Shown here: piece after piece, positions 15,005-32,000 of the stretch
How the letters are laid out: the number at the start of each line of letters is the position of its first letter
Position numbering within the stretch: the stretch's first letter is position 1
From: a virus
DNA: 32,000 nucleotides
Strand: one strand, 5' to 3'
IMG/VR virus record: IMGVR_UViG_3300037510_000657
Coordinates: 73,877 to 105,876 of that record
Made by a program: the position numbers and the translations under genes
The notes under the pieces: generated by a model
What the model saw: the letters and a program-made list of their open reading frames with translations, nothing else
Databases searched by the model: none
Told to the model about the DNA's origin: nothing

Positions 15005-15078
15005 TGGTGTCCCTCGCCGGAGTCGCACCGGTCTACCTCCTTTACGGGGAGGCGTGCTCGTACATACACCACCAGGAC
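15005..15078 (-). tRNA. tRNA with Tyr anticodon GTA but class I body, C33, weak acceptor base; CCA encoded
   Basis: D arm GTGT-ATGTACGA-GCAC, anticodon arm CCTCC-CCGTAAA-GGAGG, 4-nt variable loop. Acceptor GTCCTGG/GAGGGAC pairs 5/7. Confidence 0.6.
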
Positions 15079-15079
15079 A

Positions 15080-15154
15080 TGGATCAGGTGGAAGGGTTCG
15101 AACCTTCATTGCCGGGGTCAGAATCCGGGGTCCTGCCGATTGAACGACACCTGA
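15080..15154 (-). tRNA. tRNA-Gln (CTG), second copy, CCA encoded
   Basis: Acceptor TCAGGTG/CACCTGA (U1-A72), D arm GTTC-AATCGGCA-GGAC, anticodon arm CCGGA-TTCTGAC-CCCGG (31-39 mismatch), T arm GAAGG-TTCGAAC-CCTTC. Confidence 0.7.
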
Positions 15155-15166
15155 AGAGAACTGCGG

Positions 15167-15240
15167 ATCGGGGAGAAGGACTCGAACCTTCAACATCCTC
15201 GTTCAAAGCGAGGCGCAACTGCCGGTTGTGCTATCCCCGA
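15167..15240 (-). tRNA. tRNA-Gln (TTG)
   Basis: Acceptor TCGGGGA/TCCCCGA, anticodon arm CCTCG-CTTTGAA-CGAGG, T arm GAAGG-TTCGAGT-CCTTC. Confidence 0.85.
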
Positions 15241-15241
15241 A

Positions 15242-15316
15242 TGGAGCAGGCGAAGGGACTCGAACCCTCTCCCCAAGGCTTGGAAGGCCTGGACGCTACC
15301 ATTACGCTACGCCTGC
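15242..15316 (-). tRNA. tRNA-Gly (TCC), CCA encoded
   Basis: Acceptor GCAGGCG/CGCCTGC, anticodon loop CTTCCAA, T arm GAGGG-TTCGAGT-CCCTT. Confidence 0.85.
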
Positions 15317-15351
15317 AAACGGGAGCGCTCTTCCGATTGAGCTAAAGCCCC
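15317..15351 (-). other. tRNA 5' half ending in the anticodon loop
   Basis: GGGGCTT-TA-GCTC-AATCGGAA-GAGC-G-CTCCC-GTTT, followed immediately by G1 of tRNA-Gly(TCC). Confidence 0.55.
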
Positions 15352-15384
15352 AGAAGGATGGCGGTCGCGAAACGCGTCCTTCCT

Positions 15385-15433
15385 TGGTTGGGCCCACGGG
15401 ACTCGAACCCGCATCTCTCCCTGATTCTTCCGG
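15385..15433 (-). other. tRNA 3' half (anticodon 3' strand to CCA) lying upstream of its matching 5' half
   Basis: CCGGAAGAATCA-GGGAG-AGAT-GCGGG-TTCGAGT-CCCGT-GGGCCCA-A-CCA. GGGAG complements CTCCC, and GGGCCCA pairs 6/7 with GGGGCTT of the 5' half at 15317-15351. The 33-nt linker folds as GAAGGA...TCCTTC. Confidence 0.55.
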
Positions 15434-15505
15434 TCCCGCCGGAGGGCTTCGAACCCCCATCATTCGGTTTAAAAGACCGGTCTCTGCCAGTTGAGTTACG
15501 ACGGG
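15434..15505 (-). tRNA. tRNA-Lys (TTT)
   Basis: Acceptor CCCGTCG/CGGCGGG, anticodon arm CCGGT-CTTTTAA-ACCGA, T arm GGGGG-TTCGAAG-CCCTC. Confidence 0.85.
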
Positions 15506-15548
15506 ATGATCTCCGTCGCTTGTTTCAGTCGCTTCATGTTGCACCTCT

Positions 15549-15622
15549 TGGTGAGCCCAGAAGGAATCGAACCTTCCCCAGCAGGGTAAGAACCTGATGC
15601 TCCGCCTTGGAGCTATGGGCCC
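15549..15622 (-). tRNA. tRNA-Lys (CTT), CCA encoded
   Basis: Acceptor GGGCCCA/TGGGCTC, anticodon loop TTCTTAC, T arm GAAGG-TTCGATT-CCTTC. Confidence 0.85.
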
Positions 15623-15701
15623 ATGTTGACCGCCCTTGCGAGCGATCAGCTTCTTCGTTTCACTATTCAGTTTTCAGTCGACGCCGCTAAGCGCCGTTCG
15701 G

Positions 15702-15783
15702 TGGGAGAGCTGGGACTCGAACCCAGTTGTTCCGAAGACCCGAGGGTTACAATCTCGTTCAGTACCTTACTGTCAACACTCCC
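15702..15783 (-). tRNA. tRNA-Tyr (GTA), type II
   Basis: 82 nt. Acceptor GGGAGTG/CTCTCCC (one mismatch), anticodon loop TTGTAAC, long variable arm with TTCG loop, T arm CTGGG-TTCGAGT-CCCAG. Confidence 0.8.
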
Positions 15784-15793
15784 GAAACCTTAG

Positions 15794-15865
15794 AGCGGGT
15801 GAAGGGATTCGAACCCTCCTGTTCTTCCTTGGCAAGGAAGCTTCACACCTAGCGAATCCACCCGC
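15794..15865 (-). tRNA. tRNA-Gly (GCC)
   Basis: Acceptor GCGGGTG/CACCCGC, anticodon arm CTTCC-TTGCCAA-GGAAG, T arm GAGGG-TTCGAAT-CCCTT. Confidence 0.9.
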
Positions 15866-15884
15866 GTTCCTGCACCAACTTCAG

Positions 15885-15955
15885 AGCTCTCGCCGAGAAT
15901 CGAACTCGGCCCGGATGCTTACGAAACATCTGCTCCGCCTTGGAGCTACGAGAGC
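15885..15955 (-). tRNA. tRNA-Thr (CGT)
   Basis: Acceptor GCTCTCG/CGAGAGC, anticodon arm GATGT-TTCGTAA-GCATC, T arm CCGAG-TTCGATT-CTCGG. Confidence 0.85.
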
Positions 15956-16273: not shown

Positions 16274-17029
16274 TTACGCGTAGCTCGAAGCAGTGTCAAC
16301 TTCTTTTTTCGTGACCACCGGGCAGACCTGATTTCTGCCATTCGACTTCGCTACATAGAGCTGCATGTCCGCTCTTGCGATGGTGGTCATGAAGTCCTCA
16401 CCGTTCACTGTCTCCGCGGCCCCGATGGACACGGTGACCGTCTTGCCGTGCGCGTAGTCTACGTCTGCAACGGCATGGCGTAGCTTCTCACCGACGATGA
16501 CCGCGCCCTCGAGGTCCGTGTCCGGAAGGATGATGAGGATCTCCTCACCACCCCAGCGAACAGCGTGGTCGGTGATGCGGACGGTCGACTTCACCGTTGC
16601 GCAGACGGTCTTCAGGATCTCGTCGCCCATGTTGTGCCCGTACTCGTCGTTGACCCTCTTGAAGTAGTCGACGTCGAGCAGCAGGTACGAGAGCGCAGTT
16701 CTCGTCCGTCTGGTGCGAGAGACACAACGACTGATGACCTGCTCTCCGCCTCTGCGGTTGAGCAGGCTCGTGAGCGGGTCGCTGATGGCGGCCGCTTCGT
16801 AGGTCGAGAGGAGAGCCTTGAGCTCGCTCGTCTCCTTGGTGCGCTCCTTGTGGTCCAGAGCGATCTTGTGCCGAGGCACGATGTCCGCTCCGTACGCACG
16901 ATAGAGGCATGCTGCGACGACGGCTACCGCCATCGCTTCGCTCAACAGCCCGACCTGTTTCGCTTCCGCGATCCCTGCCGCTACCCCTGCAACCTGCAGG
17001 AGGAGGGCAGCGAGTATCAACCTGAACAT
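16274..17029 (-). CDS. GGDEF-domain diguanylate cyclase with N-terminal membrane anchor
   Basis: LLLDVDYFKRVNDEYGHNMGDEILK, RITD (I-site RxxD) 5 aa before GGEEI, SIGAA, ARADMQLYVAKSNGRNQV. Two hydrophobic N-terminal helices. GGAGGG precedes the ATG. Confidence 0.9.
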   Translation of the reverse strand: MFRLILAALLLQVAGVAAGIAEAKQVGLLSEAMAVAVVAACLYRAYGADIVPRHKIALDHKERTKETSELKALLSTYEAAAISDPLTSLLNRRGGEQVISRCVSRTRRTRTALSYLLLDVDYFKRVNDEYGHNMGDEILKTVCATVKSTVRITDHAVRWGGEEILIILPDTDLEGAVIVGEKLRHAVADVDYAHGKTVTVSIGAAETVNGEDFMTTIARADMQLYVAKSNGRNQVCPVVTKKEVDTASSYA

Positions 17030-17142: not shown

Positions 17143-17454
17143 ATGGCTCCGAAGAAGAAAGATCAACCGTCAGCGCACGACGTTCCCGACTACGACGCCC
17201 TCAAGACGGTCGATGATGTCGAGGAAGAGATCCAGCGGCACAAGGACATCCTCGTGCGGCAGGACATCATGGAGTGGCGGATGAAGCAGGACAAGAAGGA
17301 CGCCGTCTCCAGCTACAACGAGCAGCTGAAGGAGATCAAGGAAGAGCGCGACCACGAGATGGGCGTGCTCGGTGCTCTCGAGGACCGCAAGAAGGTCCTC
17401 AACGCGACGCCAGTCCTCCGGGCCATCACGGGCGGCCAGGACGGCGGCAACTAG
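17143..17454 (+). CDS. Hypothetical coiled-coil protein
   Basis: Plus-strand 103-aa ORF, GGGAGG 5 nt before the ATG, Lys/Glu-rich. Confidence 0.65.
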   Translation: MAPKKKDQPSAHDVPDYDALKTVDDVEEEIQRHKDILVRQDIMEWRMKQDKKDAVSSYNEQLKEIKEERDHEMGVLGALEDRKKVLNATPVLRAITGGQDGGN

Positions 17455-17837
17455 AGCGCGATCGACCTCAGCGTCGGGACACCTCCCGACACTACCGCCT
17501 CCACGATCACCGTCCCCGACCCAGCCACCGCCACGGTGAAGATGCCGCTGGAGTTGGTCCTCAGCCAGACCTCGACGGCTCCTCCGGGAGCTCCGACCAT
17601 CTCGGTGCCGACCGAAGTGGTGAGGAGTGCCGTGCCCACGACGCGGACGAGGACGTCTGTGACCGCGGCCTTGGCCACGCCATCGCCCGTCCTGACCTGC
17701 CCGGTGATGGTGCCGCTGCCCGCAGTCAGGTCGGCGTAGAGCAGACCCTTCATGATGTTCTTCACGAAGTTGAGAGAACGGCTCTGGTCGTTGGTGGCGC
17801 CCAGGGCCGTGAGTACGGTTGAATCGATGAGGGACAT
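17451..17837 (-). CDS. Hypothetical Gly/Val/Thr-rich (beta-rich) protein
   Basis: 128-aa ORF, GGAG before the ATG. Its stop overlaps the convergent plus-strand gene at CTAG. Confidence 0.6.
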   Translation of the reverse strand: MSLIDSTVLTALGATNDQSRSLNFVKNIMKGLLYADLTAGSGTITGQVRTGDGVAKAAVTDVLVRVVGTALLTTSVGTEMVGAPGGAVEVWLRTNSSGIFTVAVAGSGTVIVEAVVSGGVPTLRSIAL

Positions 17838-17856
17838 GGGTCGAGTCTCCTACCTC

Positions 17857-17885
17857 TTGCATGGGCCAGCAAGGTGATCTACCTT
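17857..17885 (+). promoter_or_regulatory. Candidate promoter TTGCAT-17-TACCTT for the plus-strand PTH2 operon
   Basis: TTGCAT (17857-17862), 17-nt spacer, TACCTT (17880-17885), in the divergent intergenic region. Confidence 0.4.
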
Positions 17886-17973
17886 CAGCTCATGACCTCT
17901 TCGCATTAGCCCCAGCCATGATCCCCTTCCCAGCGGATCACAGCGAGACGACGTTCTATACCACTACGTCGTC

Positions 17974-18270
17974 GTGCGGAATGACCTGCCCCACGGCGTG
18001 CAACTCGCACAGACCGTCCACGCAGCGGGCGAGTCAGGTCGTCTATCAGAACAGCTACCCGGAGACACCCGAGCCGTTGCCCTCGCCGCGGCCTCGGAAG
18101 AAGTTCTGCTCGAGCTCGAGGCTCGCCTCAGGTTCGCAGGCATCCCGCACGCTGCCATCCGAGAGCCGGACGCTCCCTACAACGGAGCGCTCATGGCCAT
18201 CGGCTGTTCGCCACTTCCAAGGACGCCGAAGCTGAAGAAGATCATGTCGGTCTTCCAGCTTCTTCGCTAG
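17974..18270 (+). CDS. PTH2-family peptidyl-tRNA hydrolase-like protein
   Basis: VRNDLPHGVQLAQTVHAA...AVALAAASEEVLLELEARLRFAGIPHAAIREPDAPYNGALMAIG...LKKIMSVFQLL follows the PTH2 pattern as I remember it. The first canonical start is GTG 17974, although the frame is open from 17896. Confidence 0.55.
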   Translation: MRNDLPHGVQLAQTVHAAGESGRLSEQLPGDTRAVALAAASEEVLLELEARLRFAGIPHAAIREPDAPYNGALMAIGCSPLPRTPKLKKIMSVFQLLR

Positions 18271-18279
18271 GAGACCGCC

Positions 18280-18555
18280 ATGAAGATGAACATCCAGAAG
18301 CTGAAGCAGGACCTCAACAACGTCGCCGCGAAGATCGTGGAGGTGAAGGCCATCCTTCGGGAGCCTCACCAGCCTCGGAAGACGTGGCGCACGCAGCCGG
18401 AGCTCGAGAGCCTGAAGTACGAGGCCACTCGTCTCTGTTCCATTCGTGCGTCACATCGAGGTAAGATCCACATGAAGGGCAAGACTCTCGAAGAGCAGGC
18501 CGAGTTCGTTGGCGACACGTCCGAGTACATGCTCGAGGAGGAAGCAGCAGCCTGA
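18280..18555 (+). CDS. Hypothetical protein
   Basis: 91-aa ORF, AGGAG 7 nt before the ATG. Confidence 0.65.
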   Translation: MKMNIQKLKQDLNNVAAKIVEVKAILREPHQPRKTWRTQPELESLKYEATRLCSIRASHRGKIHMKGKTLEEQAEFVGDTSEYMLEEEAAA

Positions 18556-18587
18556 GGCAGCGACAGCAGGCCGTGAGCCTGCATCAT

Positions 18588-18662
18588 TCGCGCGTAGCTC
18601 ATGTGGAAGAGCGCCCAGCGTAATGAACTGGGAGGTAGCGGGTTCGACCCCCGTCGCGCGAT
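18588..18662 (+). tRNA. Lone plus-strand tRNA-like gene with 9-nt anticodon loop (CGTAATGAA)
   Basis: TCGCGCG-TA-GCTC-ATGTGGAA-GAGC-G-CCCAG-CGTAATGAA-CTGGG-AGGTA-GCGGG-TTCGACC-CCCGT-CGCGCGA-T. All stems pair. If C-A closes the loop, the anticodon would be AAT. Confidence 0.6.
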
Positions 18663-18694
18663 CTGGGAGGGTCTGTGAAAACTGAAGAGGTGCT

Positions 18695-18946
18695 ATGGAG
18701 CGTCACTGCGTGAACTGTGGCGACGAACTGGTGGTCCATCAGGGCCGGGACCAGATCGTTACGTACTGCACGACTTGTGGAACGGAGACGAAGGAAGCAT
18801 GCGCACCGAGAGCACCCCAGTGGGACAGAGCACCCGTGAAGCGCGTCAGCACCATCGCGCAACTGAAGCCCAAGGAACGAGCCGACTCGAAGATCAAGAA
18901 GATGAACGATCGAGGCGGCTACGTTCCTCGGAGGGGCGCTAAGTAG
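18695..18946 (+). CDS. Zinc-ribbon small protein
   Basis: 83-aa ORF, GAAGAGG before the ATG. CVNCG...CTTCG. Confidence 0.6.
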   Translation: MERHCVNCGDELVVHQGRDQIVTYCTTCGTETKEACAPRAPQWDRAPVKRVSTIAQLKPKERADSKIKKMNDRGGYVPRRGAK

Positions 18947-19826
18947 GGTCGTCTTCCCAGGGGCGTAGGGGAGCGTAGTCCCTCTTCGCCTGTACGGTCT
19001 CGAACCGGATGTCGTAGGGAAGCTTCTCCACGTCACTCGGTTGGGTCACGATCGCCGCGGTGAGCTGCCCACCGAAGCAGCAGCCACCGTCGATGCCGTA
19101 CGTCCACACACCGTAGCGGTAGCTGTGGGTCGTCATGTATCCTGCACTGTCCTTGCAGTTGGGCACTACCCTGTGCCCGTAGATGACGTCGTCGGGGCCG
19201 ACCCACATCTCCGGCCACAAGACGCAGTTCTCCGGCTCGTCCCGCACGTGGTGGGCCTGCGCCATCTTCAGCTTGACGAGCGTCGGGCTGTCGGGGGTCT
19301 TCTGCTCGTACCGCTTGAGGATGTAGCGAAGGCGCAGGAGGTCGTTCGGCTTCTGCCGCGTCATCGGCTCGAAGTTGACCCCAGGCACCGCGCCCATCCC
19401 GGCGAAGTAGATGGGCATGACCCCGGCGTGAACCACCACGAGGTAGGGGCACACGCGGAGCCAGAGCGGTAGGGACTCGAGGTACGCCCAGCCCTCGTCG
19501 GTGATGGACATGTGCTCCTCCAGCCGGTCGGGCGTGAAGGGCTTCATGGGGTTCTGGTAGAGGGGCGTCTCCGCCTGCCGGAGCCGGTGCTTCCGGTAGC
19601 GCAGGTGCTTCTCGTCGTGGTTGCCGAGAACGGCTTCGGCCCCGATGCTCTTGGCGTAGGTGAGCACGCCAGGAGTGTCTGGGCCGCGGTCAGTCAGGTC
19701 GCCGGCCAGGATGAGCCTGTCGGTGCCCTGCTGGAACTTCACCTTGTCCAGGAGCTCCTTGAGCTCTTCCAGACAGCCGTGGACGTCCCCGACGACGATG
19801 GTCCTAGAGGGTGGGGGTGCCGTCAT
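18939..19826 (-). CDS. Metallophosphoesterase (PPP-family Ser/Thr phosphatase / ApaH-like)
   Basis: VVGDVHGC...LAGDLTDRGPD...LGNHDEKH motifs (GDxHG, GDxxDRG, GNHD). I prefer ATG 19826; the track ORF start at 19886 overlaps the upstream gene. Confidence 0.85.
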   Translation of the reverse strand: MTAPPPSRTIVVGDVHGCLEELKELLDKVKFQQGTDRLILAGDLTDRGPDTPGVLTYAKSIGAEAVLGNHDEKHLRYRKHRLRQAETPLYQNPMKPFTPDRLEEHMSITDEGWAYLESLPLWLRVCPYLVVVHAGVMPIYFAGMGAVPGVNFEPMTRQKPNDLLRLRYILKRYEQKTPDSPTLVKLKMAQAHHVRDEPENCVLWPEMWVGPDDVIYGHRVVPNCKDSAGYMTTHSYRYGVWTYGIDGGCCFGGQLTAAIVTQPSDVEKLPYDIRFETVQAKRDYAPLRPWEDDPT

Positions 19827-20574
19827 AGCTGCCGCCGTCCGTCGGCGGAGGCGAGCCGGGGTTGGTGGGGTCCGAGGCGTCGTCATCGGCCGGCAGGGTG
19901 GTGACAGGGCCGTACTCGAAGAAGACGCCGTTGTGAACGCGGGCGTAGTTGGGGCACGCGCCGGCGGCGACCAGCTTCACGACCTCGTCCTTCACGTCGT
20001 TGTGCTCGATGCGGAGCAGGGTGGCAGCGCCGACACGGATGGTGTCCTGCACCGAGTCGATGGTGATCTTGCCGGTGTTGGCACGCTCGCGGATCTCCTT
20101 GGTCACGTCGTGAGCCGAGAAGGTCTTGTTGGCCGCGACGAAGTCCTTGAGGACGGCCGCGACCGCGTCTTCCATGTTCATGTACGTCTCCTGGTTCGGG
20201 TCGGGGGTGACGGTGGTGAAGCACGAGCTCTTGGGCAGCACCTGGACGGGGACGCTCAGAGCCTTCGTCTTCTTGGGCTTGGGGACCTTGGCCTGGAACA
20301 CGACCAGGGCCGGGTCCTGCCCAGGGTTGGGGCACGGGACGATGGTGCTGGGGCCGTTGACCTTCAGGCGCTGGTCCGCCCAGATCTTCCGACCGTTCTT
20401 GGCGCGGGAGCCTTCCTGGTAGCAGACCTTGCCCTTCCACCGGAGCTCGCGCAGGGCGCGGGACACGGTGCTCATGCAGGGCGTGGGCTGGATGAGGTGG
20501 GTGAGGTTGGCTGCAGTGAGGCCCGAGGGCGACGCCTGCAGGATGATGAGGATCTGTTCTCTGACGTGGTTCAT
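19804..20574 (-). CDS. Winged-helix (MarR-like N-terminus) DNA-binding protein
   Basis: The N-terminal HVREQILIILQASPSGLTAANLTHLI...VSRALRELRWKGKV is wHTH-like. ATG 20574 makes an ATGA overlap with the upstream stop. Confidence 0.6.
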   Translation of the reverse strand: MNHVREQILIILQASPSGLTAANLTHLIQPTPCMSTVSRALRELRWKGKVCYQEGSRAKNGRKIWADQRLKVNGPSTIVPCPNPGQDPALVVFQAKVPKPKKTKALSVPVQVLPKSSCFTTVTPDPNQETYMNMEDAVAAVLKDFVAANKTFSAHDVTKEIRERANTGKITIDSVQDTIRVGAATLLRIEHNDVKDEVVKLVAAGACPNYARVHNGVFFEYGPVTTLPADDDASDPTNPGSPPPTDGGSYDGTPTL

Positions 20575-20969
20575 GTTCTCCATCCTTCCGGCAACTCGAC
20601 GTTGTCAGGAGCATCATGGAACATGGGTCTGACTTCCTCGTCCGTGTACCCGGCCAGGCCGCAGCCGATCCGGGTGACGAAGAAGGTGAGCTCGGGGGTC
20701 GCCCGGGCGTAGTCGATGAACCTGTCCACGAAGCTCTTGATGACCGTGAGCGGCAGGGTCTCGAGGTGTTCGTTCTTGGTGGGGATGGCGTAGCTGGTCC
20801 CCACGAGTCCGATGCCCAGGCCCTGACGAGCTCCATGGTGCAGTCGGGCGTGGAGAGCTGCGCCTGCACCATGGATGCCTGCCAGGTTCGAGCCGAACAC
20901 GAAGATGTCGTGCTGCTCCCAGCAGAACGTCTTGTCCTTGTAGGTTCTTCCGTCGAGTGTGTACTCCAT
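20571..20969 (-). CDS. Macro/SLOG-like Rossmann-fold nucleotide-binding protein (family uncertain)
   Basis: From ATG 20969 (ATGA overlap): FVFGSNLAGIHGAGAA, GTSYAIPTK, TRIGCGLAGY. I recall this motif trio from a widespread phage/bacterial small nucleotide-binding family. Confidence 0.55.
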   Translation of the reverse strand: MEYTLDGRTYKDKTFCWEQHDIFVFGSNLAGIHGAGAALHARLHHGARQGLGIGLVGTSYAIPTKNEHLETLPLTVIKSFVDRFIDYARATPELTFFVTRIGCGLAGYTDEEVRPMFHDAPDNVELPEGWRT

Positions 20970-21244: not shown

Positions 21245-21393
21245 GGCACCCACCCCGGGTCGAGCTCCTTGAGGGCAGCCCGAGCATGGCAGGGACCGCA
21301 GAGGCAGACAGTACCACAGTTGCGCTTGTGGCATCGTTTGGCAGCCAGCTCTCGGAGGGCCTCGAGAGTGTGGCGCCTGGTCTTGGGGCTCAC
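21241..21393 (-). CDS. Possible 50-aa Cys-rich protein (GTG start, translationally coupled)
   Basis: GTG 21393 overlaps the upstream TGA. ...KRCHKRNCGTVCLCGPCHARAALKEL..., and its stop overlaps the next ATG. Confidence 0.4.
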   Translation of the reverse strand: MSPKTRRHTLEALRELAAKRCHKRNCGTVCLCGPCHARAALKELDPGWVP

Positions 21394-22474: not shown

Positions 22475-23908
22475 CTAGTAGCGGTTGTCGGTCTTGAACT
22501 CGACCAGGTACTGCAGGATGTGCTGCTGGATGTCGTAGACGATGAACTCGTTGTGGAGGAGGTAGCTGCCCTTCTCCCCCTGCACCGAGTGGTAGCCCGC
22601 GGGCGGCTTCGTCAGGTGGCTCTGCGAGTCCTTGTACTTCTTGATGGTCCCGAGTGCCACGTCGGCCACGAACATGAAGAACGTGTCGCCGTGAGCCCCT
22701 CGCCCGCCGCCGAAGCGCCCGAAGGCGTACTGCTCGGACTTGGAGCTCTGGTCGGCGAAGTAGAGGCCGTTGCCGAACATCGAGCCAGTGATGTAGACAC
22801 CGGGCGGCCTCATGAGCAGGCCGCTCTTGCAGATGCCCAGGATGTTCTGCGGCCCGGAGCCGTGGAACAGGGCCTGGACGTTGCCGGTCTCCTTCATGGT
22901 CTTGATATGCTTCTGCGTCTGGCCGCGCACGTTCACGCGCCAGACGTTCTTCACCTGCATCTTCCAGGTGTGGTGGGAGGAGCGGGAGGACTGCATGTAC
23001 TTCTCGACCTTCTGATACGAAGGATTGGTGTTCTCGAGGTACTCGTACTCGCAGCCGATCTCCTTGTACTTCTTCCCGATGTCCGTCGTGGCGAAGCCAC
23101 CGACCATGCCTTGGACGTCGGAGAGCAGCTTGAGGAGATCCTCCTTCTCGTCGAGGATGGTCGCGTTGTTCAGCGCCATCTTGTGCAGCCAGGCATCCAT
23201 GGCCGCGTCTCCGTCGCTCTTCTTCGGTCGAAGCCCCATCTCCTGGGGGATGGCCGAGTAGAACTTGTTGGAGAGCTGGAGGATGTCCGGGTGGATGGAG
23301 TCCTTCAGCTTCGGCTTGGAGTCGAGCATGGCCTGCACCTCCTGGAGGATGTGCCTGCCGTCCTCGATCTGGGTCAGCGTCAGGGTGCCGAGTGGGTTCT
23401 CCACGGTGGAGTTCAGCGTTCCCGACAGCTGGCTCTTCACGGCCTGCCCCGCCTCCGCGTAGAGGCGCTCGACGAGCTTGGACACGCTGTGGTGCAGCTT
23501 GACGTCGTCCTTGACGTCCTTCGTGTCCGAGACGACCTTGTCCTTCTTGATGTCGTCGGAGAGGATCTGGGCGTTGCCGACAGACGAGCCGACCTTGGTC
23601 GAGGCCATCTTCACCTCGACGTAGCCCTTGCGGGCGCTGGTCTTCTCGGCCTTCAGGGACTCGAACGCCTCGAGCAGCGAGGGCTCGTTCTGCGGCGGGA
23701 TGCGCTCCTCCTGGACACCCGAGGCGCCGACGCGCCCGTAGCAGGAGAAGAGCCTGAACTTCGTTCCGTCCTTCGAGACGTGTGCCTCGATCTGGTAGAA
23801 CTTGTTGTTCCCGCCGGTGAGGTCGGTCTTGTTGAGCGTGGCCGACTTGACGACGTTGTAGTCGTTGGGGAACTTGAACGTTCCCAGTGCTTGGGCTCCG
23901 AGCTTCAT
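22475..23908 (-). CDS. Poly(ADP-ribose) polymerase homologue (WGR + helical regulatory + catalytic domain, H-Y-E triad)
   Basis: WGR: NKFYQIEAHV...FSCYGRVGASG. Regulatory: NPLGTLTLTQIEDGRHILQEV. Catalytic: LFHGSGPQN (H), GNGLYFADQSSKSEQY (Y), YLLHNEFIVYD (E). Confidence 0.9.
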   Translation of the reverse strand: MKLGAQALGTFKFPNDYNVVKSATLNKTDLTGGNNKFYQIEAHVSKDGTKFRLFSCYGRVGASGVQEERIPPQNEPSLLEAFESLKAEKTSARKGYVEVKMASTKVGSSVGNAQILSDDIKKDKVVSDTKDVKDDVKLHHSVSKLVERLYAEAGQAVKSQLSGTLNSTVENPLGTLTLTQIEDGRHILQEVQAMLDSKPKLKDSIHPDILQLSNKFYSAIPQEMGLRPKKSDGDAAMDAWLHKMALNNATILDEKEDLLKLLSDVQGMVGGFATTDIGKKYKEIGCEYEYLENTNPSYQKVEKYMQSSRSSHHTWKMQVKNVWRVNVRGQTQKHIKTMKETGNVQALFHGSGPQNILGICKSGLLMRPPGVYITGSMFGNGLYFADQSSKSEQYAFGRFGGGRGAHGDTFFMFVADVALGTIKKYKDSQSHLTKPPAGYHSVQGEKGSYLLHNEFIVYDIQQHILQYLVEFKTDNRY

Positions 23909-23911: not shown

Positions 23912-24103
23912 TTACTCCCTGAAGAACTTCTCCGGATCGGAGAGCATCTTCTTCATCTCCTTCGTTGCGAACTTCCCGCCATCTTCCAGGAAGGCCAGGG
24001 CGTGGAAGTAGTCGCACACCGAGGCCGGGTCCTTGGTGGGGCGCTTGTAGCCGGTGGGGCTGTCGTCGTCGACTGGCTCGTACTTCTTCTTGTTGAGCAG
24101 CAT
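23912..24103 (-). CDS. 63-aa hypothetical protein
   Basis: ORF packed tightly between the rIIB-like and PARP genes. Confidence 0.55.
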   Translation of the reverse strand: MLLNKKKYEPVDDDSPTGYKRPTKDPASVCDYFHALAFLEDGGKFATKEMKKMLSDPEKFFRE

Positions 24104-24105: not shown

Positions 24106-25272
24106 TTACTTCTTCTTCCTGACCTTGATGATGGTGGCCACGAGGGAGGTCTTGCCCCCGGGGATCTTGGACGCGCCGGTGATGTTCAGGACCTTGCCGG
24201 CGTACTGGCGCAGGTCGGAGATGGACTGCTCCATCAGGTCCTTCATGCTGAGCTCGCCGAAGTCGGGGGCCGTCTTCTCCACCTTCTCGGGCTCGTCGAG
24301 AGGGCCGACGACGTCGCGGAGGTCGACACCGGGGCCGGCCTTCATGCGAACGGTACCGGTCGACTTGAGGACCGCGACAGCTTCCTCCTCGGTGTCCTCG
24401 TCGAGATCAGAGGGGCCAGTCTCGATGTCATCCGGGAAGTCGTCATCCTCGTCCTCGTCATCCTCGTCGAGGTCGTCCAGGCTCGCCTCTGCCTCGGCGT
24501 CGTCCTGCTCGTCGGGCTCGAGGTACGGCGGGTCCTCCTTGACCGTGTCGTCGACGAAGAGCGTGCTCGGCAGCTTGCAGCCGTAGTTGCCGATGACCTC
24601 GTACCGGCAGACGCGCATCTTCTGGGCGTTGTGGTCGTAGGGGACGCAGACCACGTGCTCGGGGTCGACCTTGCAGATGACGACGCGGTGGCTGAAGGTG
24701 CCGGCGTAGCCGTAGGCGCCCACGTGGAAGCCGACGTGGCAGGCCTCGTTCGGGTCATCCGAGATCTGGTTGCGCGGCATCTCGTGGATGTTGCCCGGGG
24801 TGTTGTCGTACTTCCCCGAGTGGGCGTCCTTGTAGTCGTTCTGCACGCCCTTGTACGCGAGGAAGCAGCCGTCGGTGGTCAGGGGGATGTGGGCGTGGGC
24901 CAGGAAGCTCCACAGCTGCTGGACCGAGCGCCACGACGGGTTCTTCTGGAGGCGCTCCCAGAAGAGCAGGATGGGGGTCGGGTCGGCGCCGGAGCTGGCG
25001 ACGTTGATGAGGCGCTGGTTGAGCTCCCTGGGCAGCGGCTTGTCATCGCAGAGCACTTCTCCGGTGGTCTCGTTGAACGTGAACCGTCCCTTGGCCCAGT
25101 CCTTCAGGGTCTTGGCGGCGGTGAGGTGGTTCTCGATGTCGGCCCAGTTCTCCGAGACGATGGCCGCCCGGAGTCCCTTGAAGTTGGCCGCCGACTTCTG
25201 GACGGTGATGGGCTTGCCCTTCCAGACGATGGTTATGGTGTCGTTGGTGAGTGAGTAGGACGGGGCGTTCAT
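24106..25272 (-). CDS. rIIB: rIIB-like protein with acidic linker and C-terminal SAP/HeH-like tail
   Basis: DGCFLAYKGVQNDYKDAHSGKYDNTPGNIHEMPRNQISDDPNEACHVGFHVG...VVICKVDPEHVVCVPYDHNAQKMRVCRYEV matches the T4 rIIB C-terminal core as I remember it. Adjacent to the rIIA-like gene. Confidence 0.7.
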   Translation of the reverse strand: MNAPSYSLTNDTITIVWKGKPITVQKSAANFKGLRAAIVSENWADIENHLTAAKTLKDWAKGRFTFNETTGEVLCDDKPLPRELNQRLINVASSGADPTPILLFWERLQKNPSWRSVQQLWSFLAHAHIPLTTDGCFLAYKGVQNDYKDAHSGKYDNTPGNIHEMPRNQISDDPNEACHVGFHVGAYGYAGTFSHRVVICKVDPEHVVCVPYDHNAQKMRVCRYEVIGNYGCKLPSTLFVDDTVKEDPPYLEPDEQDDAEAEASLDDLDEDDEDEDDDFPDDIETGPSDLDEDTEEEAVAVLKSTGTVRMKAGPGVDLRDVVGPLDEPEKVEKTAPDFGELSMKDLMEQSISDLRQYAGKVLNITGASKIPGGKTSLVATIIKVRKKK

Positions 25273-27344
25273 GCTTCCTCCCTTTCATCGATCATCTTGA
25301 TGTAGTCGAGCCAGTGGCTCGCCTGCGTGTGGTGGTTCCAGAGGCGCGTGATGCTGATGTTGTCGGCAGCGAAGAGGGGGTACCTGTCGGTGATGTCCTT
25401 GAACGCAGCCTTCTGCGCCGTCGCCGGGGAGAACCTCTCCCCCAGCTTCAGGATCTGGTCCTTGAGCTGCCAGTCGATGCCGCTCATCTCCTCCTTCGCC
25501 TTGAGGTGCTTCGCGATGAAGGTCGTGACCATGTGGTTCTCCCCGAGCACCTCGACCAGGTTGTCGAGGATGTTCTTGTCGGCTCGGAGATCTCGGTAGT
25601 AGCCCACCTTGAGGTCCACCCCCGTCAGGTCAGCCCACTGGGCCAAGTCGACCTTGGCAAGCAGCTCTGGCGTCTTGAGAGTGGCGATGAACGTCTCCCT
25701 CCAGGTGTCGTAGGGGATGCCGGTGAGCGACGTCGAGTACACGGGCTTCCGCGCGGTCGTCTTGTAGCCGTAGATGGGCGGGAGGGGGAGCCCCGCGATG
25801 GCCGCCATCATCTCGTCTTCCTCGATGCGCCGGTAGAAGCCGTTGTTGCCCTCGGCCTTGAAGTGGTCGAGGATGACGTACACGTCGGTGGCCTCGGGCT
25901 CGCGCATCACGGTGTCCCACGCCTCGGAGTAGGGCGCGTAGACGCCCTTCCTCTTCCGCAGCACGAAGGTGGAGACCTTGTGCTTGGCGTTGACCGGGCC
26001 GTGCTTCTTCCCCTTCGCCGGCGGCTGAGACCACGCCACCTCCGACAGGTTCCGGATGGGGATACCGGTCATGCCGTTCTTCTCGAGCAGCGCCTCGAAC
26101 TCTGCCTTCGCCTCGGCCAGGGTGTGCTTCCCGGTCGGCTTGATGACGTAGTCGTGGGGGTCGAGGTGGAAGCCGGACAGCTTGCGCTTGTCGTCGTGGA
26201 GGAAGACTCGACTCTTCTCATCGATGCGGATGCTGAGGGCCGTACCCTTCTGCTTCAGCATGATGAAGGTCGTCGGTACCTCGCTCTCCTCGGTCACCCG
26301 CACGTAGTCGTCCTGCAGGTCCTGGTACTTCTCCGGGATCGGCAGGCCGAGCTTGTGCAGGCCCTGGACGCGGACACGCTTCTGCCAGGCGGACAGCTTG
26401 GGCGTGTCGATGTCCTTCAGGGTGTCGGTGACGTACTCCTCGAGGAGCTCGTTCACCTTCTTGACGATGGCCAGCTTGGTCTCGTCGCTGTACTTGAGCT
26501 CCTCGCGGGACGCGCTGATCTCCACCTCGCCGATGCCGAAGTAGAGAGCACCAGAGACCTTGTTGGCGAACTCGGCTAGGCCGTCGCCACCGTCCACGTC
26601 CTCCAGCTGCTCGAGGTTGATGCGGTAGGGGACGCAGCCCATGATGGCCACCCACTCGCCGGCGCGCTCTTCATCACCACCGAAGATGCGCCCGTTCTTG
26701 AACAGCGCCTGGTCCTTGGGGAGGTCGGGGAGCTCGACGTTGATCTCCGGGCGCGGGTCGAAGTACATGAACAGCTTCTTCGCCCTGTCGATGAACGCCC
26801 AGTAGTCGGTGGTCTTGCACGGGATGTAGATGGTCACCCCGGTCTCGTCACCGCACGGCTCCTCGGCCAGCTTGTTGATGAGCCCCTTGTTGGTCTTGTC
26901 CAGGACGGCCGAGTAGGTGATGCGGAGGCCGTCGTGGCAGGAGACGATGGTGAAGCTGTCCGAGTAGGCGAAGGCGCTCTTGGAGCCGATGCCGAGCATG
27001 CCGACAGAGTTGTCGCTGCCTCGCTTGGTGCTTGCGCCGTACTGGGTGTAGACCTCGAACACGCTCCTCTCGGAGAGGCCAGGTCCGAAGTCCTGGATGG
27101 TGAGCGTCGTGTCGCCGGCGGTGGGCAGGTGGATCTTGATGGGCAAGTCGCCCTTCCCGACCTCCCTGTGTGCGTCCCAGGCGTTGGCCGAGTACTCGCG
27201 CAGGATGGCCAGGATCTTGTCGGAGTACAGCGTGTCGCGAAGGATGCCCATGAGGTGAGCAGCATCGTTCATCGACAGGCCGAACTCGCCGCTCGCGGTG
27301 ACGCCGTGCGAAACTACTTCTCGTGCTTTGGCGTTGGGTATCAC
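25269..27344 (-). CDS. rIIA: rIIA-like GHKL (HATPase_c) ATPase
   Basis: N-box REYSANAWDA, G1 box IQDFGPGL, G2 box GMLGIGSKSAF. ~690 aa, and precedes the rIIB-like gene with a 4-nt overlap. Confidence 0.75.
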   Translation of the reverse strand: MIPNAKAREVVSHGVTASGEFGLSMNDAAHLMGILRDTLYSDKILAILREYSANAWDAHREVGKGDLPIKIHLPTAGDTTLTIQDFGPGLSERSVFEVYTQYGASTKRGSDNSVGMLGIGSKSAFAYSDSFTIVSCHDGLRITYSAVLDKTNKGLINKLAEEPCGDETGVTIYIPCKTTDYWAFIDRAKKLFMYFDPRPEINVELPDLPKDQALFKNGRIFGGDEERAGEWVAIMGCVPYRINLEQLEDVDGGDGLAEFANKVSGALYFGIGEVEISASREELKYSDETKLAIVKKVNELLEEYVTDTLKDIDTPKLSAWQKRVRVQGLHKLGLPIPEKYQDLQDDYVRVTEESEVPTTFIMLKQKGTALSIRIDEKSRVFLHDDKRKLSGFHLDPHDYVIKPTGKHTLAEAKAEFEALLEKNGMTGIPIRNLSEVAWSQPPAKGKKHGPVNAKHKVSTFVLRKRKGVYAPYSEAWDTVMREPEATDVYVILDHFKAEGNNGFYRRIEEDEMMAAIAGLPLPPIYGYKTTARKPVYSTSLTGIPYDTWRETFIATLKTPELLAKVDLAQWADLTGVDLKVGYYRDLRADKNILDNLVEVLGENHMVTTFIAKHLKAKEEMSGIDWQLKDQILKLGERFSPATAQKAAFKDITDRYPLFAADNISITRLWNHHTQASHWLDYIKMIDEREEA

Positions 27345-27352: not shown

Positions 27353-27625
27353 CTAGTGGTCGTCGAGGATCTCTCCTCGGTAGGTGCCGATCAGCTGGTA
27401 GGGCCAGTTGACGGCGTTTCCGATGTCCGGCAGTCTCGCAGGCGGCTCTGACACTTCCAGCATCGCGTCCTTGGACCCGAACGAGACCAGCTTCTTCTCG
27501 CCGGCCATGCTGCTGTCGAGCGCCTTGTTCTCGTAGATGGCTATGCCGTCAGCCCGCATGAGCCAGCGGTTCACGATAGGCCACACCTCTTTGTCGATGA
27601 TGGCCTTCGCTTCATCTCTGGTCAT
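27353..27625 (-). CDS. Hypothetical protein
   Basis: 90-aa ORF with an ATGA-type overlap to the NUDIX gene. Confidence 0.6.
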   Translation of the reverse strand: MTRDEAKAIIDKEVWPIVNRWLMRADGIAIYENKALDSSMAGEKKLVSFGSKDAMLEVSEPPARLPDIGNAVNWPYQLIGTYRGEILDDH

Positions 27626-28143
27626 AGGAGCGAGTGCTGCCGCAGGTAGTTCTCCAGCGGCGGGAAGAGGGGTTGCGGAAGGTTGCTAGGAGCGCACCAG
27701 CGCCACTCCTCGCACTTGTCGGGCTCCTTGTTCACGGGCTCGCAGTTGACCCACGTGGCTCGGAAGAACAGGGTGATGTAGTGCTTCCCGTTGCCCCAGA
27801 TGTTGTTGACATAGGGGCCGCGGGTGACCGCCAGGACAGGGATGCCAGTCTCCTCCTTGACCTCGCGGATGGCGCACTCCTCCGGCGTCTCTCCGTGCTC
27901 GAGGTGACCGCCAGGGAGAGCCCAGGTGCCCTGTCCGTGGGGCGACTTCCTCTTGCCCAGCAGTACCTGCCCCTCGCGGTTGACGAGGATGACGGCGCAG
28001 CCCACGCGGACCCGGATCTGGTCCTCGACGAAGGCCTGGTAGAGCTTCACGACATCCTGCTCGAGCGGTGCCTCGGGCCCGTCGATGTTGCTGTACCAGC
28101 GAGCCAGTCGGTCCCAAGCTGGCGATCCGATGAAGTTGCTCAT
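27622..28143 (-). CDS. NUDIX hydrolase
   Basis: NUDIX box GGHLEHGETPEECAIREVKEETG. I prefer ATG 28143, which makes an ATGA overlap with the upstream stop. Confidence 0.9.
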   Translation of the reverse strand: MSNFIGSPAWDRLARWYSNIDGPEAPLEQDVVKLYQAFVEDQIRVRVGCAVILVNREGQVLLGKRKSPHGQGTWALPGGHLEHGETPEECAIREVKEETGIPVLAVTRGPYVNNIWGNGKHYITLFFRATWVNCEPVNKEPDKCEEWRWCAPSNLPQPLFPPLENYLRQHSLL

Positions 28144-28363: not shown

Positions 28364-29353
28364 CTACTTGGGCTCCTCCATGAAGGCGACCACGTCGGCG
28401 TACTTGGCCTCCTTGTCGGTCTCGAGCTTGGACTCGAAGGCCTTGAACTGCTTCTTGGTCATGCCCGACCCTTCCTGGCCCATGTCGTCCAGGTAGCCGC
28501 CACGCTGAAGCTCACGCCACGCAGCCCGCAGATGCCGCATCTCGGTGGCCGAGAAGCGGGTGGCGAAGAAGCTGTGCTCCTGCCAGAGCTTGAAGGTCCT
28601 CGGGTAGAGCGTCTTGATGGAGACGGCCACGGCGTTGGCGAACTGCCGGATCTCCTTCTGGGCGCTGAGCTCCATGCGCAACGACAGGAAGGACAGCCAG
28701 TTGCGGAGATCCGTCTTGGCCGTCATCTTCGAGTAGCGAGAGACCGGGGTGTTGAGGCGAGCGATCTCGTTGGCCACTCCCATGCCGATGAGCCGGTCGT
28801 AGTTCTGGTAGACCGCCTCCTGCTCGTTGCTCAGGTCCGAGCAGATCTCGATGGCGTCTTCGAGCGAGAAGGTGTCACCGGAGCCCTGCTTGTTGCTCTT
28901 CGACTGCTTGGCGATGCGCCCGGGCTCGGGGACGTAGTGTTCGTTGGGCATCACCGCGTAGCGGGCCGAGAACTCGTTGTAGCTCTGCGTGCGGTGCCGG
29001 TGCCACTCGCGGAAGACGACGAGCGGGGCCTTGATCTCGAACTTGACCTCCACCATCTCGAACGGGGTCATGTGCTGGTTGGCGTAGAGGTACTCGAGAA
29101 GATCCGAGTCCTTCTTGGTCTCCAGGACGTGCTCCCCGTTGTTCTTGTCGCACCACGAGGGGATGGCCCCGCCGGGGAGCATCGTCAGCAGGCAGTGCTT
29201 GCACTGCTTGTACTCGTCCCAGGAGACGAAGCCCTTGCCGGTGGACATGCGAGCCGCCTCGATGATGGCGGACTCCTCGCCCATGTAGTCGACGAGCTTG
29301 ACGTAGCCCTTGTCGAGAACGTTGAAGCCTTCCTTCAGCTGTCCGATGTTCAT
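28364..29353 (-). CDS. thyX: Flavin-dependent thymidylate synthase ThyX
   Basis: ThyX signature REWHRHRTQSYNEFSARY (RHRxxSxxxxSxR) and N-terminal GYVKLVDYMG..AIIEAARMS. Confidence 0.9.
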   Translation of the reverse strand: MNIGQLKEGFNVLDKGYVKLVDYMGEESAIIEAARMSTGKGFVSWDEYKQCKHCLLTMLPGGAIPSWCDKNNGEHVLETKKDSDLLEYLYANQHMTPFEMVEVKFEIKAPLVVFREWHRHRTQSYNEFSARYAVMPNEHYVPEPGRIAKQSKSNKQGSGDTFSLEDAIEICSDLSNEQEAVYQNYDRLIGMGVANEIARLNTPVSRYSKMTAKTDLRNWLSFLSLRMELSAQKEIRQFANAVAVSIKTLYPRTFKLWQEHSFFATRFSATEMRHLRAAWRELQRGGYLDDMGQEGSGMTKKQFKAFESKLETDKEAKYADVVAFMEEPK

Positions 29354-31372: not shown

Positions 31373-32000
31373 TCAGCAACCTTTCCGAGCCAGCATCTCT
31401 AGCGCTGGCGTCCTGTCCCCGTTGCACGAGATGCGGCGGGGGACTTCGAGCTTGGTGATGGTGAACCCGAGGTTCTCGTAGAGGTCGACGATCCGGTCAG
31501 TGGCCAGGTTCGACGCCACCGACGGGCCCGGATGCTGAGCCAGCCACCTGGCGAGGCGCACCTGGTCGTCCCAGTTGAAGTCCCTCTGCGCGAAGGACGT
31601 GAAGCCGTCGTCGTAGGGCGGGTCGGCGTAGATGAAGTCGGTAGGCTTCAGCGGGATGGTGCCGAAGTCACCCATCCACACCTCCCAGCCCTTCATCACC
31701 TCGACGTAGGGAGTGAAGTCGGTCTTGTAGTTGATGGTCTTGTAGCTGCCGAAGGGGACGTTGAAGTAGCCCTTGCGGTTGAACCGGCACAGGCCGTTGA
31801 AGCAGGTGCGGTTCAGGTAATAGAAGAGGAGGGCACCCTCTCTCGACCAGTACTCCTGCGCCTGGCACAGCAGATTGAACTTCTCGCGGTTGGCGTAGAA
31901 GACGTTGCGGTCGTTCTCGAACTCGACGCCGCAGTTGTCGTCGGCCACGAGCCCGGCCTGGACCCAGCGCCAGAAGTTCATCAGGTGCGGGTTCACGTCC
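31373..32000 (-). CDS. dam: Dam-family N6-adenine DNA methyltransferase (N-terminus beyond window end)
   Basis: YYLNRTCFNGLCRFNRKGYFNVPFG and FIYADPPYD motifs. The frame is open to the window edge. Confidence 0.85.
   Translation of the reverse strand, partial: DVNPHLMNFWRWVQAGLVADDNCGVEFENDRNVFYANREKFNLLCQAQEYWSREGALLFYYLNRTCFNGLCRFNRKGYFNVPFGSYKTINYKTDFTPYVEVMKGWEVWMGDFGTIPLKPTDFIYADPPYDDGFTSFAQRDFNWDDQVRLARWLAQHPGPSVASNLATDRIVDLYENLGFTITKLEVPRRISCNGDRTPALEMLARKGC

Follow-up and report, generated by a model that had tools for sequence, protein, structure and literature searches.

The PARP gene and its domains

The window analysed here is a 32,000-nucleotide stretch of the genome of a large soil phage (IMG/VR record IMGVR_UViG_3300037510_000657, positions 73,877 to 105,876), and all coordinates refer to it unless another locus is named. 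On its minus strand, an open reading frame (ORF) with an ATG start at 22475..23908 (stop codon 22475-22477) encodes a product of 477 amino acids (aa) that is predicted to be a PARP1/2/3-like ("clade 1") ADP-ribosyltransferase, with a WGR domain, a helical regulatory domain (HD) and a catalytic domain (CAT) in the order WGR-HD-CAT. Downstream of it lies the gene of a 256-aa protein, referred to below as the partner, which shows the strongest linkage to PARP and is the only gene universally linked to it, and which was absent from the initial annotation of the window, made from the letters of the DNA without database searches. This report concerns the PARP, its partner, and what the two may do together.

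The initial annotation had described a phage PARP with the full WGR-HD-CAT set of domains and an H-Y-E triad, and profile searches bear this out: all three domains are found by Pfam, each above its curated cut-off.

23609..23842, minus strand: WGR domain, aa 23-100 (Pfam PF05406, 2.3e-12)
23111..23500, minus strand: helical regulatory domain (PARP_reg/HD), aa 137-266 (Pfam PF02877, 1.7e-13)
22478..23017, minus strand: ADP-ribosyltransferase (ART) catalytic domain, aa 298-477 (Pfam PF00644, match to aa 298-446, 4.5e-36)

In a phmmer search of PDB sequences, the top match is the WGR-HD-CAT portion of human PARP1 (4dqy_C, 8e-37), followed by PARP2, PARP3, PARP4 and tankyrases. The alignment with PARP1 pairs LFHGS with LWHGS, GLYFAD with GIYFAD and HNEFIVYD with YNEYIVYD, and thus puts the triad in register. 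The triad consists of H349 (codon 22862-22864, minus strand), Y383 (22760-22762) and E454 (22547-22549), which align with PARP1 H862, Y896 and E988, and is unchanged in 39 of 39 clade members and in all 12 of the diverse phage PARPs that were aligned. M377, K390, S391 and Y394 align with PARP1 M890, K903, S904 and Y907. The loop leading from the HSVxG motif to the catalytic Glu is ~20 aa shorter than in PARP1, as it is in all other aligned phage PARPs, and an invariant His (H452) occupies the position of PARP1 Y986. In the WGR domain, the name-giving motif reads Y57-G58-R59-V60-G61, with YGR replacing WGR; G58 and R59 are invariant, as is the whole GRVG motif among the 39 clade members. The HD contains an invariant PLGTL motif (L173, L176) that aligns with PLGKL of PARP1.

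The predicted fold agrees with this assignment. An AlphaFold2 (AF2) model made from 39 homologues (mean predicted local distance difference test score, pLDDT, 73.6) displays the HD helical bundle, and its best PDB matches in Foldseek are PARP1 and PARP2 on DNA double-strand breaks, with a template modelling (TM) score of up to 0.67; the whole-chain matches are to the WGR-HD-CAT portions of PARP1/PARP2. The GC content at third codon positions is 0.95 in the PARP ORF and 0.85-0.95 in the flanking genes. The gene is therefore native to the genome and neither a recent import nor an assembly chimera.

A partner gene shared by phages and bacteria

The partner gene lies on the same strand as PARP.

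19804..20574, minus strand: partner g256, 256 aa, with a winged-helix-like N-terminus, a conserved domain at aa ~130-225 and a C-terminal tail

The protein is laid out as a winged helix-turn-helix (HTH)-like N-terminus, a low-complexity linker, the conserved domain, a Pro/acidic linker and the tail. The N-terminus gives weak but consistent winged-helix matches (the best in PDB is MarR-like MJ223 at 0.015), and the N-termini of individual family members match PadR, GntR and Crp-type HTH. The conserved domain, with the consensus FSAhDvT..lR...H..Vr...y.r..nG.y.eY, has no significant family in Pfam, PHROG, NCBIfam, PADLOC or PDB-sequence searches. The tail is YDGTPTL in the window (C-terminal codons 19804-19826) and YDG[STN][SP][TS][LI]-COOH in virtually all close members of the family (149 representatives). 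It looks like a docking motif or a degron, and bacterial versions of the protein are without it. A word-indexed search with the partner returned a single foreign match; an exhaustive HMMER search returned 161 representatives, all matching residues ~130-256. The family evolves fast, with 25-37% identity between members where the PARPs are 62-75% identical.

Linkage was assessed in a sample of 49 related phage or metagenome loci, searched with the window proteins and with hidden Markov models (HMMs). A partner-family gene lies downstream of PARP, at a distance of 6 nt to 2.6 kb, in every phage-clade locus that has at least ~2.5 kb of downstream sequence; in two of these (L008 and L038) it was found after one HMM iteration. 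At L010, the locus with the most divergent PARP (35% identity), the partner is 7.5 kb away. The linkage spans PARP identities of 47-75% and GC contents of 36-62%, and it extends to loci without rII genes or macrodomain (see below) and to loci of 36-46% GC with a PARP identity of 47-55%.

The partner domain is also found in bacteria. In 7-8 genomes it is encoded by an ORF whose start lies 1-60 nt beyond the PARP stop codon.

L057, L062 and L066: Blastocatellia
L058 and L071: Armatimonadota
L063: Capsulimonadales
L069: Chthonomonadales
L075: a probable further locus

An HMM built from phage partners only retrieves the bacterial ORFs (1.8e-8 to 7e-3), and one built from bacterial partners only retrieves the phage proteins (7e-9 down to 4e-3, the window partner at 4e-3). 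The other flanks of the bacterial loci are mutually unrelated, comprising SDR, cellulase, epimerase, amidohydrolase and SRAP genes. Since these flanks differ and the partner stays, the conserved unit is a two-gene cassette of PARP and partner. It was not found at mycobacterial and proteobacterial PARP loci, and no description of the pair was found in the literature searched.

Three further observations concern the bacterial loci. At L066 (Blastocatellia), the pair is followed at 6839-7516 by the SRAP gene (SOS-response-associated peptidase, 2.4e-79), a link to DNA damage in one locus. An AbrB/SpoVT-like C-terminus was seen by eye in the partners of L063 and L069; Pfam did not confirm it, and it is not claimed. 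At L072, a Bernardetiaceae (Bacteroidota) PARP is followed at 6207-6476 by a 90-aa ORF (…STTTLDIKNRLR…GWEY…) that by eye resembles a minimal partner and that the HMMs did not detect.

Distribution of phage PARPs

A search of 5.8 billion proteins at E<=1e-5 gave at least 250 matches to the window PARP. The best 120 of these (clusters) are 60-75% identical to it, keep the three-domain architecture and were recovered from metagenomes of soil, rhizosphere and groundwater, the contigs measuring up to 243 kb; several of the contigs of this clade are IMG/VR viral genomes of 137-210 kb. The window PARP is a member of a large uncultivated clade of at least 120 protein clusters, and it is native to a phage lineage of roughly 100-240 kb.

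Cultured phages are more remote. Megablast of 24 kb of the window gave only tRNA-sized matches and no close cultured relative, and a tblastn search of 50,697 deposited phage genomes with the PARP matched 16 records, all of them <30% identical over the full length.

Stenotrophomonas RAS14 and CM1: PARP identity 26% over the full length
Cellulophaga phi4:1 and phi17:2: PARP identity 24% over the full length
Xanthomonas XacN1 and Xoo-sp13, Klebsiella FBKp34 and relatives: 35-40%, catalytic domain only

Phage PARPs are already known as a kind. They were listed for Aeromonas phage Aeh1 and Cellulophaga phi4:1 (Perina et al., 2014; PMC4245714) and reported for a few jumbo phages (Iyer et al., 2021; PMC7824862), and the PART family is among the commonest viral ARTs (Iyer et al., 2022; PMC9503650). 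In GenBank, gp111 of Klebsiella phage vB_KpM_FBKp34 is annotated with WGR, regulatory and catalytic domains. The PARP of the window is a new, abundant member of this kind.

Among bacteria, a first scan of GTDB genomes with clade-specific peptide patterns gave zero PARPs. A second scan of GTDB representative genomes, with patterns from a broader alignment, gave 30 bacterial PARPs, which are 23-31% identical to the window protein and come from Gemmataceae, Gemmobacter, Paracoccus, Variovorax, Blastocatellia, Armatimonadota and mycobacteria. Human PARP1, at 24-27% identity, is about equally distant. The term "eukaryote-type" in the initial annotation therefore stands for the architecture and not for the origin, the same architecture occurring in bacteria and cultured phages. 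A crude neighbour-joining (NJ) tree separates the phage clade from the bacterial one and places the PARPs of cultured phages outside the clade of the window. A human PARP1 fragment appears as sister to the phage clade in this tree; this placement is not relied on, as it involves one eukaryotic sequence, long branches and midpoint rooting.

Gene neighbourhood and its conservation

The minus-strand genes from ThyX (28364-29353) to a phosphoesterase (18939-19826) overlap or are spaced by a few bases, and the sole larger gap in this block measures 145 nt (21245-21389). The gene order up to PARP is ThyX, a 73-aa ORF, NUDIX, a 90-aa ORF, rIIA, rIIB, a 63-aa ORF and PARP; after PARP follow ORFs of 62, 185, 108 and 91 aa without family matches, a 132-aa macrodomain, the 256-aa partner and the phosphoesterase.

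27622..28143, minus strand: NUDIX hydrolase, generic MutT-like (Pfam NUDIX PF00293, 1.8e-27; Nudix box intact)
25269..27344, minus strand: rIIA-like, with a GHKL ATPase-like N-terminus (phrog_612, 9.7e-95; HATPase_c, 2.4e-5)
24106..25272, minus strand: rIIB-like (phrog_609, 8.8e-62; Pfam PF26926, Phage_T4_rIIB)
20571..20969, minus strand: compact macrodomain g132, 132 aa (A1S_2505/phrog_2072 family, TARG1/DarG class)
18939..19826, minus strand: calcineurin-like metallophosphoesterase (Pfam Metallophos, 3.6e-16; phrog_246, NinI-like)

The profile matches confirm the rIIA- and rIIB-like genes that had been noted on this strand. The two overlap by 4 nt, and the 63-aa ORF at 23912-24103 is the only gene between rIIB and PARP. 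Among the sampled loci, rIIA-rIIB lie immediately upstream of PARP in ~13-15, and the linkage is missing in about one third (L002/L003/L024, L004, L007-L010 and L017). The macrodomain follows PARP by 0.4-2.2 kb in ~13 loci, mostly the same as those with rII genes upstream, and in three places its gene is tandemly duplicated downstream of PARP (L022, 1888-3171; L023, 10149-11429; L035, 11946-12798). The rII and macrodomain links hold for one subclade. The NUDIX gene has a homologue within 10 kb of PARP in one other locus only (L016), and the phosphoesterase near PARP in one other locus only (L011); these two links are positional accidents of the window genome.

The PARP of relatives is found in other company as well. 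In a groundwater contig of 243,706 nt (L002, positions 1-21428) it lies amid an ATP-dependent DNA ligase, an RNA ligase, two RtcB and RlaP, in a region that also holds a sigma70_r4-like gene, a response-regulator receiver and two AcrVA2-like genes; a Metallophos gene beside the RNA ligase and RtcB is unrelated to that of the window. In Cellulophaga phi17:2, the genes on either side of PARP encode a CCA-adding enzyme and a DNA ligase.

The NUDIX gene had been listed as part of an NAD+/ADP-ribose module. Its presence on the same strand is confirmed, and its specificity for ADP-ribose or a link to PARP is not: all NCBIfam models score under their cut-offs, the best being of MutT type (52.7 bits against 148), and the signature of ADP-ribose pyrophosphatases is missing (YffH/AdpP, 18.7 bits against a cut-off of 79.55). 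Because the gene adjoins ThyX and a dCTP deaminase is encoded elsewhere in the window, the evidence suggests a role in nucleotide-pool metabolism as the simpler reading. The genes concerned, both on the minus strand, are dCTP-deaminase-like 6149-6853 (2.5e-33) and ThyX (8.1e-41).

The phosphoesterase had been called ApaH-like. That label is right at the level of the superfamily, which comprises ApaH, lambda-PPase and Pnkp-phosphatase, and too narrow for ApaH itself, since the ApaH equivalog NF001204 scores 86.4 bits against a cut-off of 176 with only the N-terminal half aligned; there are also partial sub-threshold matches to Pnkp phosphatase and Ser/Thr phosphatase models.

The compact macrodomain

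The 132-aa protein had been described as "macro/SLOG-like". Fold and profiles identify it as a macrodomain and reject SLOG. The protein matches NCBIfam NF049995 ("A1S_2505 family phage non-structural protein") with 150.9 bits at a cut-off of 45, and phrog_2072 at 1.3e-46; the A1S_2505/phrog_2072 family has at least 7,957 matches, and one UniRef member is named as a macro-domain protein. An AF2 model (pLDDT 94.5) has as its top PDB matches in Foldseek DarG with ADP-ribose (5m3e, 7.9e-5), M. tuberculosis DarG, TARG1 (4j5r/4j5s) and Streptomyces SCO6735 (5e3b), the last of which also comes first in a profile search of PDB sequences, via the RIGCGLAG loop. For SLOG, there is no Pfam match at E<=0.01, and the structural neighbours are macrodomains or designed hydrolases on a macro-like scaffold.

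In an hhalign comparison with a manually entered TARG1 sequence, GIHGAGAA aligns with CRMGAGIA, IPTK65 with ITK84 and RIGCGLA106 with RIGCGLD125. The equivalent of the catalytic Lys (TARG1 K84, TaqDarG K80) and the GCGL phosphate-binding loop are thus kept, and Ala106 stands at the position of TARG1 Asp125. Across 38 sequences, N28, K65 and the RIGCGLAG loop do not vary. T. aquaticus DarG has N22 and K80 in its active site (PMC13309987); N28, in the FGSN motif, lies outside the region aligned by hhalign and may match N22.

Matches of the model in BFVD are viral macro proteins. The small macrodomain subtype also occurs there as a part of very large polyvalent or helicase proteins from uncultured (crAss-like) phages; one such protein is annotated as ART-PolyVal-like (A0A7M1RZQ7, 37% identity).

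Proposed mechanism and alternatives

Taken together with the gene linkage, the domain make-up of the protein points to a nucleic-acid-end-activated ADP-ribosyltransferase that would act with the partner, a reading to which we give about an even chance. On the model of PARP1-3 and the Herpetosiphon enzyme, the WGR domain would bind a nick or an end of a nucleic acid, and binding would relieve the autoinhibition exerted by the helical domain. The catalytic domain would then use host NAD+ to ADP-ribosylate PARP itself and nearby targets, with oligo- or poly-ADP-ribose (PAR) as a plausible product. The partner, having a DNA-binding module of its own, might be the main acceptor, or else a targeting or cofactor subunit, so that the appearance of DNA ends would, through ADP-ribosylation, switch a protein bound to DNA. 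Breakdown of the host chromosome, nuclease attack on phage DNA, or replication and packaging might supply these ends. For the rII-linked subclade, removal of the modification would probably fall to the TARG1/DarG-class macrodomain; alternatively, this macrodomain might strip host-imposed ADP-ribose from phage DNA, as AdfM does. In vitro, PAR is made by the PARPs of both Herpetosiphon and C. difficile, the former depending on DNA (PMC8120803, PMC4245714). A tie of PARP to nucleic-acid ends fits the ligases, RtcB and CCA-adding enzyme that lie beside it in relatives and in phi17:2.

The nature of the product deserves caution. The triad had been taken as a sign of poly- rather than mono-ADP-ribosylation, which it does not predict by itself. 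PARP3 and PARP4 have H-Y-E yet act as mono-transferases, and PDB entries label PARP4 as a mono-ADP-ribosyltransferase; H-Y-E is necessary, not sufficient, for polymer synthesis. Together with the acceptor-site residues, it would favour polymer formation, which the short loop and the Y986-to-His replacement make less certain.

Several points weigh against the proposed mechanism. Because the loop before the Glu is ~20 aa shorter and His replaces Y986, H-Y-E alone cannot tell whether a polymer is formed. The AF2 model of the PARP is only moderate, with pLDDT <50 at residues 352-377 and 397-406, and the WGR domain carries Tyr where PARP1-3 have the name-giving Trp. An interaction of PARP with the partner is suggested by gene linkage only, and the partner is without a known fold or family; in phages, the synteny could in part be inherited gene order. 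Neither the partner nor an A1S_2505-type macrodomain was found within 6-8 kb of PARP in RAS14, XacN1, FBKp34 and phi17:2. A scan for promoters and terminators on the gene strand from 16.0 to 30.5 kb found none above the shuffled expectation that would define an operon. No functional study or biochemistry of any phage PARP was found in the searchable literature. Finally, 331 records of cultured phages, most of them N4-like podoviruses, contain the macrodomain family, against 16 found to contain PARP; the family clearly functions without PARP.

By analogy, a PARP-independent role of the macrodomain in counter-defence is plausible, because of these counts and because of the precedent of AdfM, a DarG2-like phage macrodomain that strips DarT2-made ADP-ribose from phage DNA (PMC13309987). 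The ART-PolyVal-like fusion and the macrodomain after PARP in ~13 loci favour a pairing of PARP as writer with the macrodomain as eraser. We do not rank the two.

A bolder form of the proposed mechanism is possible, and we hold it tentatively. Prokaryotic and phage clade-1 PARPs might work only as one component of a two-component system, the other being a partner domain not described before (consensus F-[ST]-A-x-D-[IV]-T...R...H...Y.R...Y). This domain would serve as an HPF1-like specificity or targeting factor or as the dedicated, DNA-bound substrate of an ADP-ribosylation switch triggered by DNA ends. The partner domain may be fused to varied DNA-binding modules, to which the phage versions may add a C-terminal docking tail. 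If this is true, a PARP signalling circuit of ancestral kind exists outside eukaryotes, and a widespread lineage of phages from soil and groundwater, with genomes of ~200 kb, has acquired it.

The same cassette could be read as a toxin-antitoxin-like or abortive/exclusion system for superinfection exclusion or inter-phage competition, in which PARP would be toxic through NAD+ depletion or through ADP-ribosylation upon DNA ends, and the partner would be its inhibitor and autoregulator. A two-gene unit with unrelated flanks in bacteria is a layout typical of mobile defence and toxin-antitoxin modules; like an antitoxin, the partner joins DNA-binding ends that vary to a domain that is conserved, and it evolves fast (25-37% identity against 62-75% for PARP). 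DarT-DarG provides the precedent of an ART toxin with a neutralising partner (PMC11481870, PMC13309987). However, neither PARP nor partner was matched by PADLOC, the effector gene comes first, and the full WGR-HD autoinhibition is kept, with which a protein antitoxin is not obviously needed. The phage PARP also lies among early genes of the host-takeover type (rIIA/rIIB), and toxicity of the cassette is a prediction by analogy. We consider this explanation unlikely.

Similarly unlikely is a host-takeover transferase like T4 Alt/ModA/ModB, which at an early stage of infection would modify RNA polymerase, translation factors or nucleoid proteins of the host, and for which the partner and the macrodomain would be mere syntenic neighbours. 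In T4-like phages, rIIA-rIIB mark an early-gene neighbourhood, and PARP lies directly downstream of them in ~13-15 loci. Such a role has been proposed for jumbo-phage PARPs in surveys (PMC7824862, PMC9503650). The rII linkage is, however, missing in about one third of the loci, and takeover leaves unexplained both the partner domain beside bacterial PARPs and the invariant DNA-sensing WGR with its autoinhibitory HD.

The enzyme might instead direct mono-ADP-ribosylation at nucleic acids, capping or marking DNA or RNA ends and thereby protecting phage termini or coordinating repair of the ligase/RtcB type. PARP2 and PARP3 can mono-ADP-ribosylate DNA 5'/3' phosphates, and their architecture equals the minimal WGR-HD-CAT of the window protein. 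The adjoining macrodomain belongs to a class that removes ADP-ribose from nucleic acids (DarG, TARG1, AdfM), and PARP has repair genes around it in L002 (DNA ligase, RNA ligase, two RtcB, RlaP) and phi17:2 (DNA ligase, CCA-adding enzyme). Such surroundings are missing in the window and in most loci, however, and acceptor-site residues typical of the chain-elongating PARP1 are kept, which makes this explanation decidedly improbable.

The weakest is the module originally proposed, a single NAD+/ADP-ribose metabolic or counter-defence unit in which PARP would make ADP-ribose or PAR, the macrodomain would release it, NUDIX would degrade free ADP-ribose and the ApaH-like phosphoesterase would handle dinucleotide signals: although the four genes share a strand and a gap-free array and lie no more than 9 kb apart, the macrodomain has a real ADP-ribose-binding/hydrolase fold and the Nudix box is intact, this reading is the one weakened most by the synteny and family tests and is highly improbable, since NUDIX is generic MutT-like (YffH/AdpP, 18.7 bits against 79.6) and is more simply placed in nucleotide-pool metabolism with ThyX and dCTP deaminase, the homologues of NUDIX and the phosphoesterase lie near PARP in one other locus each, and the phosphoesterase of L002, beside RNA ligase and RtcB, suggests RNA repair. 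What survives of the module is the TARG1/DarG-class macrodomain as a neighbour; NUDIX and the phosphoesterase are not conserved neighbours.

Comparison with known systems

The window PARP resembles human PARP1/2/3 in the WGR-HD-CAT order, the H-Y-E triad, PLGxL in the HD, GRVG in the WGR domain and the aligned M, K, S and Y residues, and its predicted fold superposes on PARP1/PARP2 bound to DNA breaks. It differs in sequence (24-27% identity), in having neither the zinc fingers and BRCT found in PARP1 nor the N-terminal extension found in PARP2, and in the details of its domains (Tyr for Trp in WGR, a pre-Glu loop ~20 aa shorter, His for Y986). It is also phage-borne and tied to a prokaryote-specific partner gene instead of HPF1. 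The analogy between HPF1-PARP1/2 and the partner would be a functional one only, in that a non-enzymatic protein is linked genetically to a clade-1 PARP: the partner showed no similarity to HPF1 in sequence, it has DNA-binding modules, and an effect on catalysis is pure inference.

With the bacterial PARPs of Herpetosiphon aurantiacus and Clostridioides difficile CD160, the window protein has in common the three-domain or WGR+CAT organization and H-Y-E, and with those of Armatimonadota and Blastocatellia also the downstream partner domain. The bacterial enzymes are 23-31% identical and form the separate clade in the crude NJ tree, and their partners lack both the insertion of phage type and the YDGSSTL tail, any extensions being of another kind. 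The PARPs of cultured phages (FBKp34 gp111, RAS14/CM1, XacN1 ORF414, phi4:1/phi17:2 gp031) share H-Y-E and the short pre-Glu loop but are only about 24-28% identical over the full length, the value of 35-40% applying to the catalytic domain only.

The 132-aa protein shares the macro fold with TARG1, DarG and AdfM (best PDB entries 5m3e, 5m3i, 4j5r and 4j5s). Unlike TARG1 and DarG, it has a core of only ~110 aa and Ala in place of TARG1 Asp125, and it is 15-19% identical to them; unlike DarG, it is without a DarT-binding domain and belongs to a very large family of its own, A1S_2505/phrog_2072. T4 Alt/ModA/ModB are likewise phage-encoded NAD+-dependent protein modifiers expressed with early genes, but they belong to the R-S-E clade, are mono-ADP-ribosylating or RNAylating, and are without nucleic-acid-sensing regulatory domains (PMC8120803).

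Other features of the window

A dense tRNA array occupies 8138-15955 on the minus strand. ARAGORN places 35 tRNAs between 8306 and 15955, covering most amino acids, and Rfam confirms 23 at the gathering score, including one more at 8138-8209; a few small ORFs interrupt the array. Within it lie an HNH endonuclease (9119-9658, minus strand; HNH_5, 1.5e-15) and a transfer-messenger RNA (tmRNA; 11116-11467, minus strand; Rfam RF00023, 121.9 bits) with the predicted tag ANAVANDNDVALPLQAAA. The tmRNA adjoins a gene (11475-12098, minus strand) for a 207-aa truncated class-I release-factor-like protein, which consists of the end of PCRF and the RF-1 domain and scores ~173 bits with prfA-like models, below the cut-off, and 72 bits with prfH. 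The two genes hint at a phage module for translation rescue or termination.

Between the array and the phosphoesterase, a GGDEF diguanylate cyclase of 251 aa with a hydrophobic N-terminus is encoded at 16274-17029 on the minus strand (TIGR00254, 5.9e-43); a homologue occupies the equal relative position in L035. A lone tRNA-Ile (anticodon AAT) at 18588-18663 is on the plus strand, opposite to the main array, and small plus-strand ORFs around it (17143-18946) break the minus-strand gene block. A Dam-type D12 N6-adenine methyltransferase is encoded at 31373-31996 on the minus strand (1.4e-24).

Significance

In eukaryotes, PARP signalling has a central place in DNA repair, as it has in cancer therapy. 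The PARP of the window represents an abundant, strongly conserved phage lineage and not a one-off transfer. Candidates for genes that work with it are narrowed to two, the universally linked partner, which is also found in bacteria, and the macrodomain of the TARG1/DarG class. If the partner is a cofactor or a dedicated substrate, the pair would provide a minimal two-protein model for the targeting of DNA-break-activated ADP-ribosylation and would bear on the rise of the eukaryotic PARP system; if it is neither, the gene would be one more annotated phage PARP. What is added here is a conserved pair of PARP and partner that is common to phages and bacteria.

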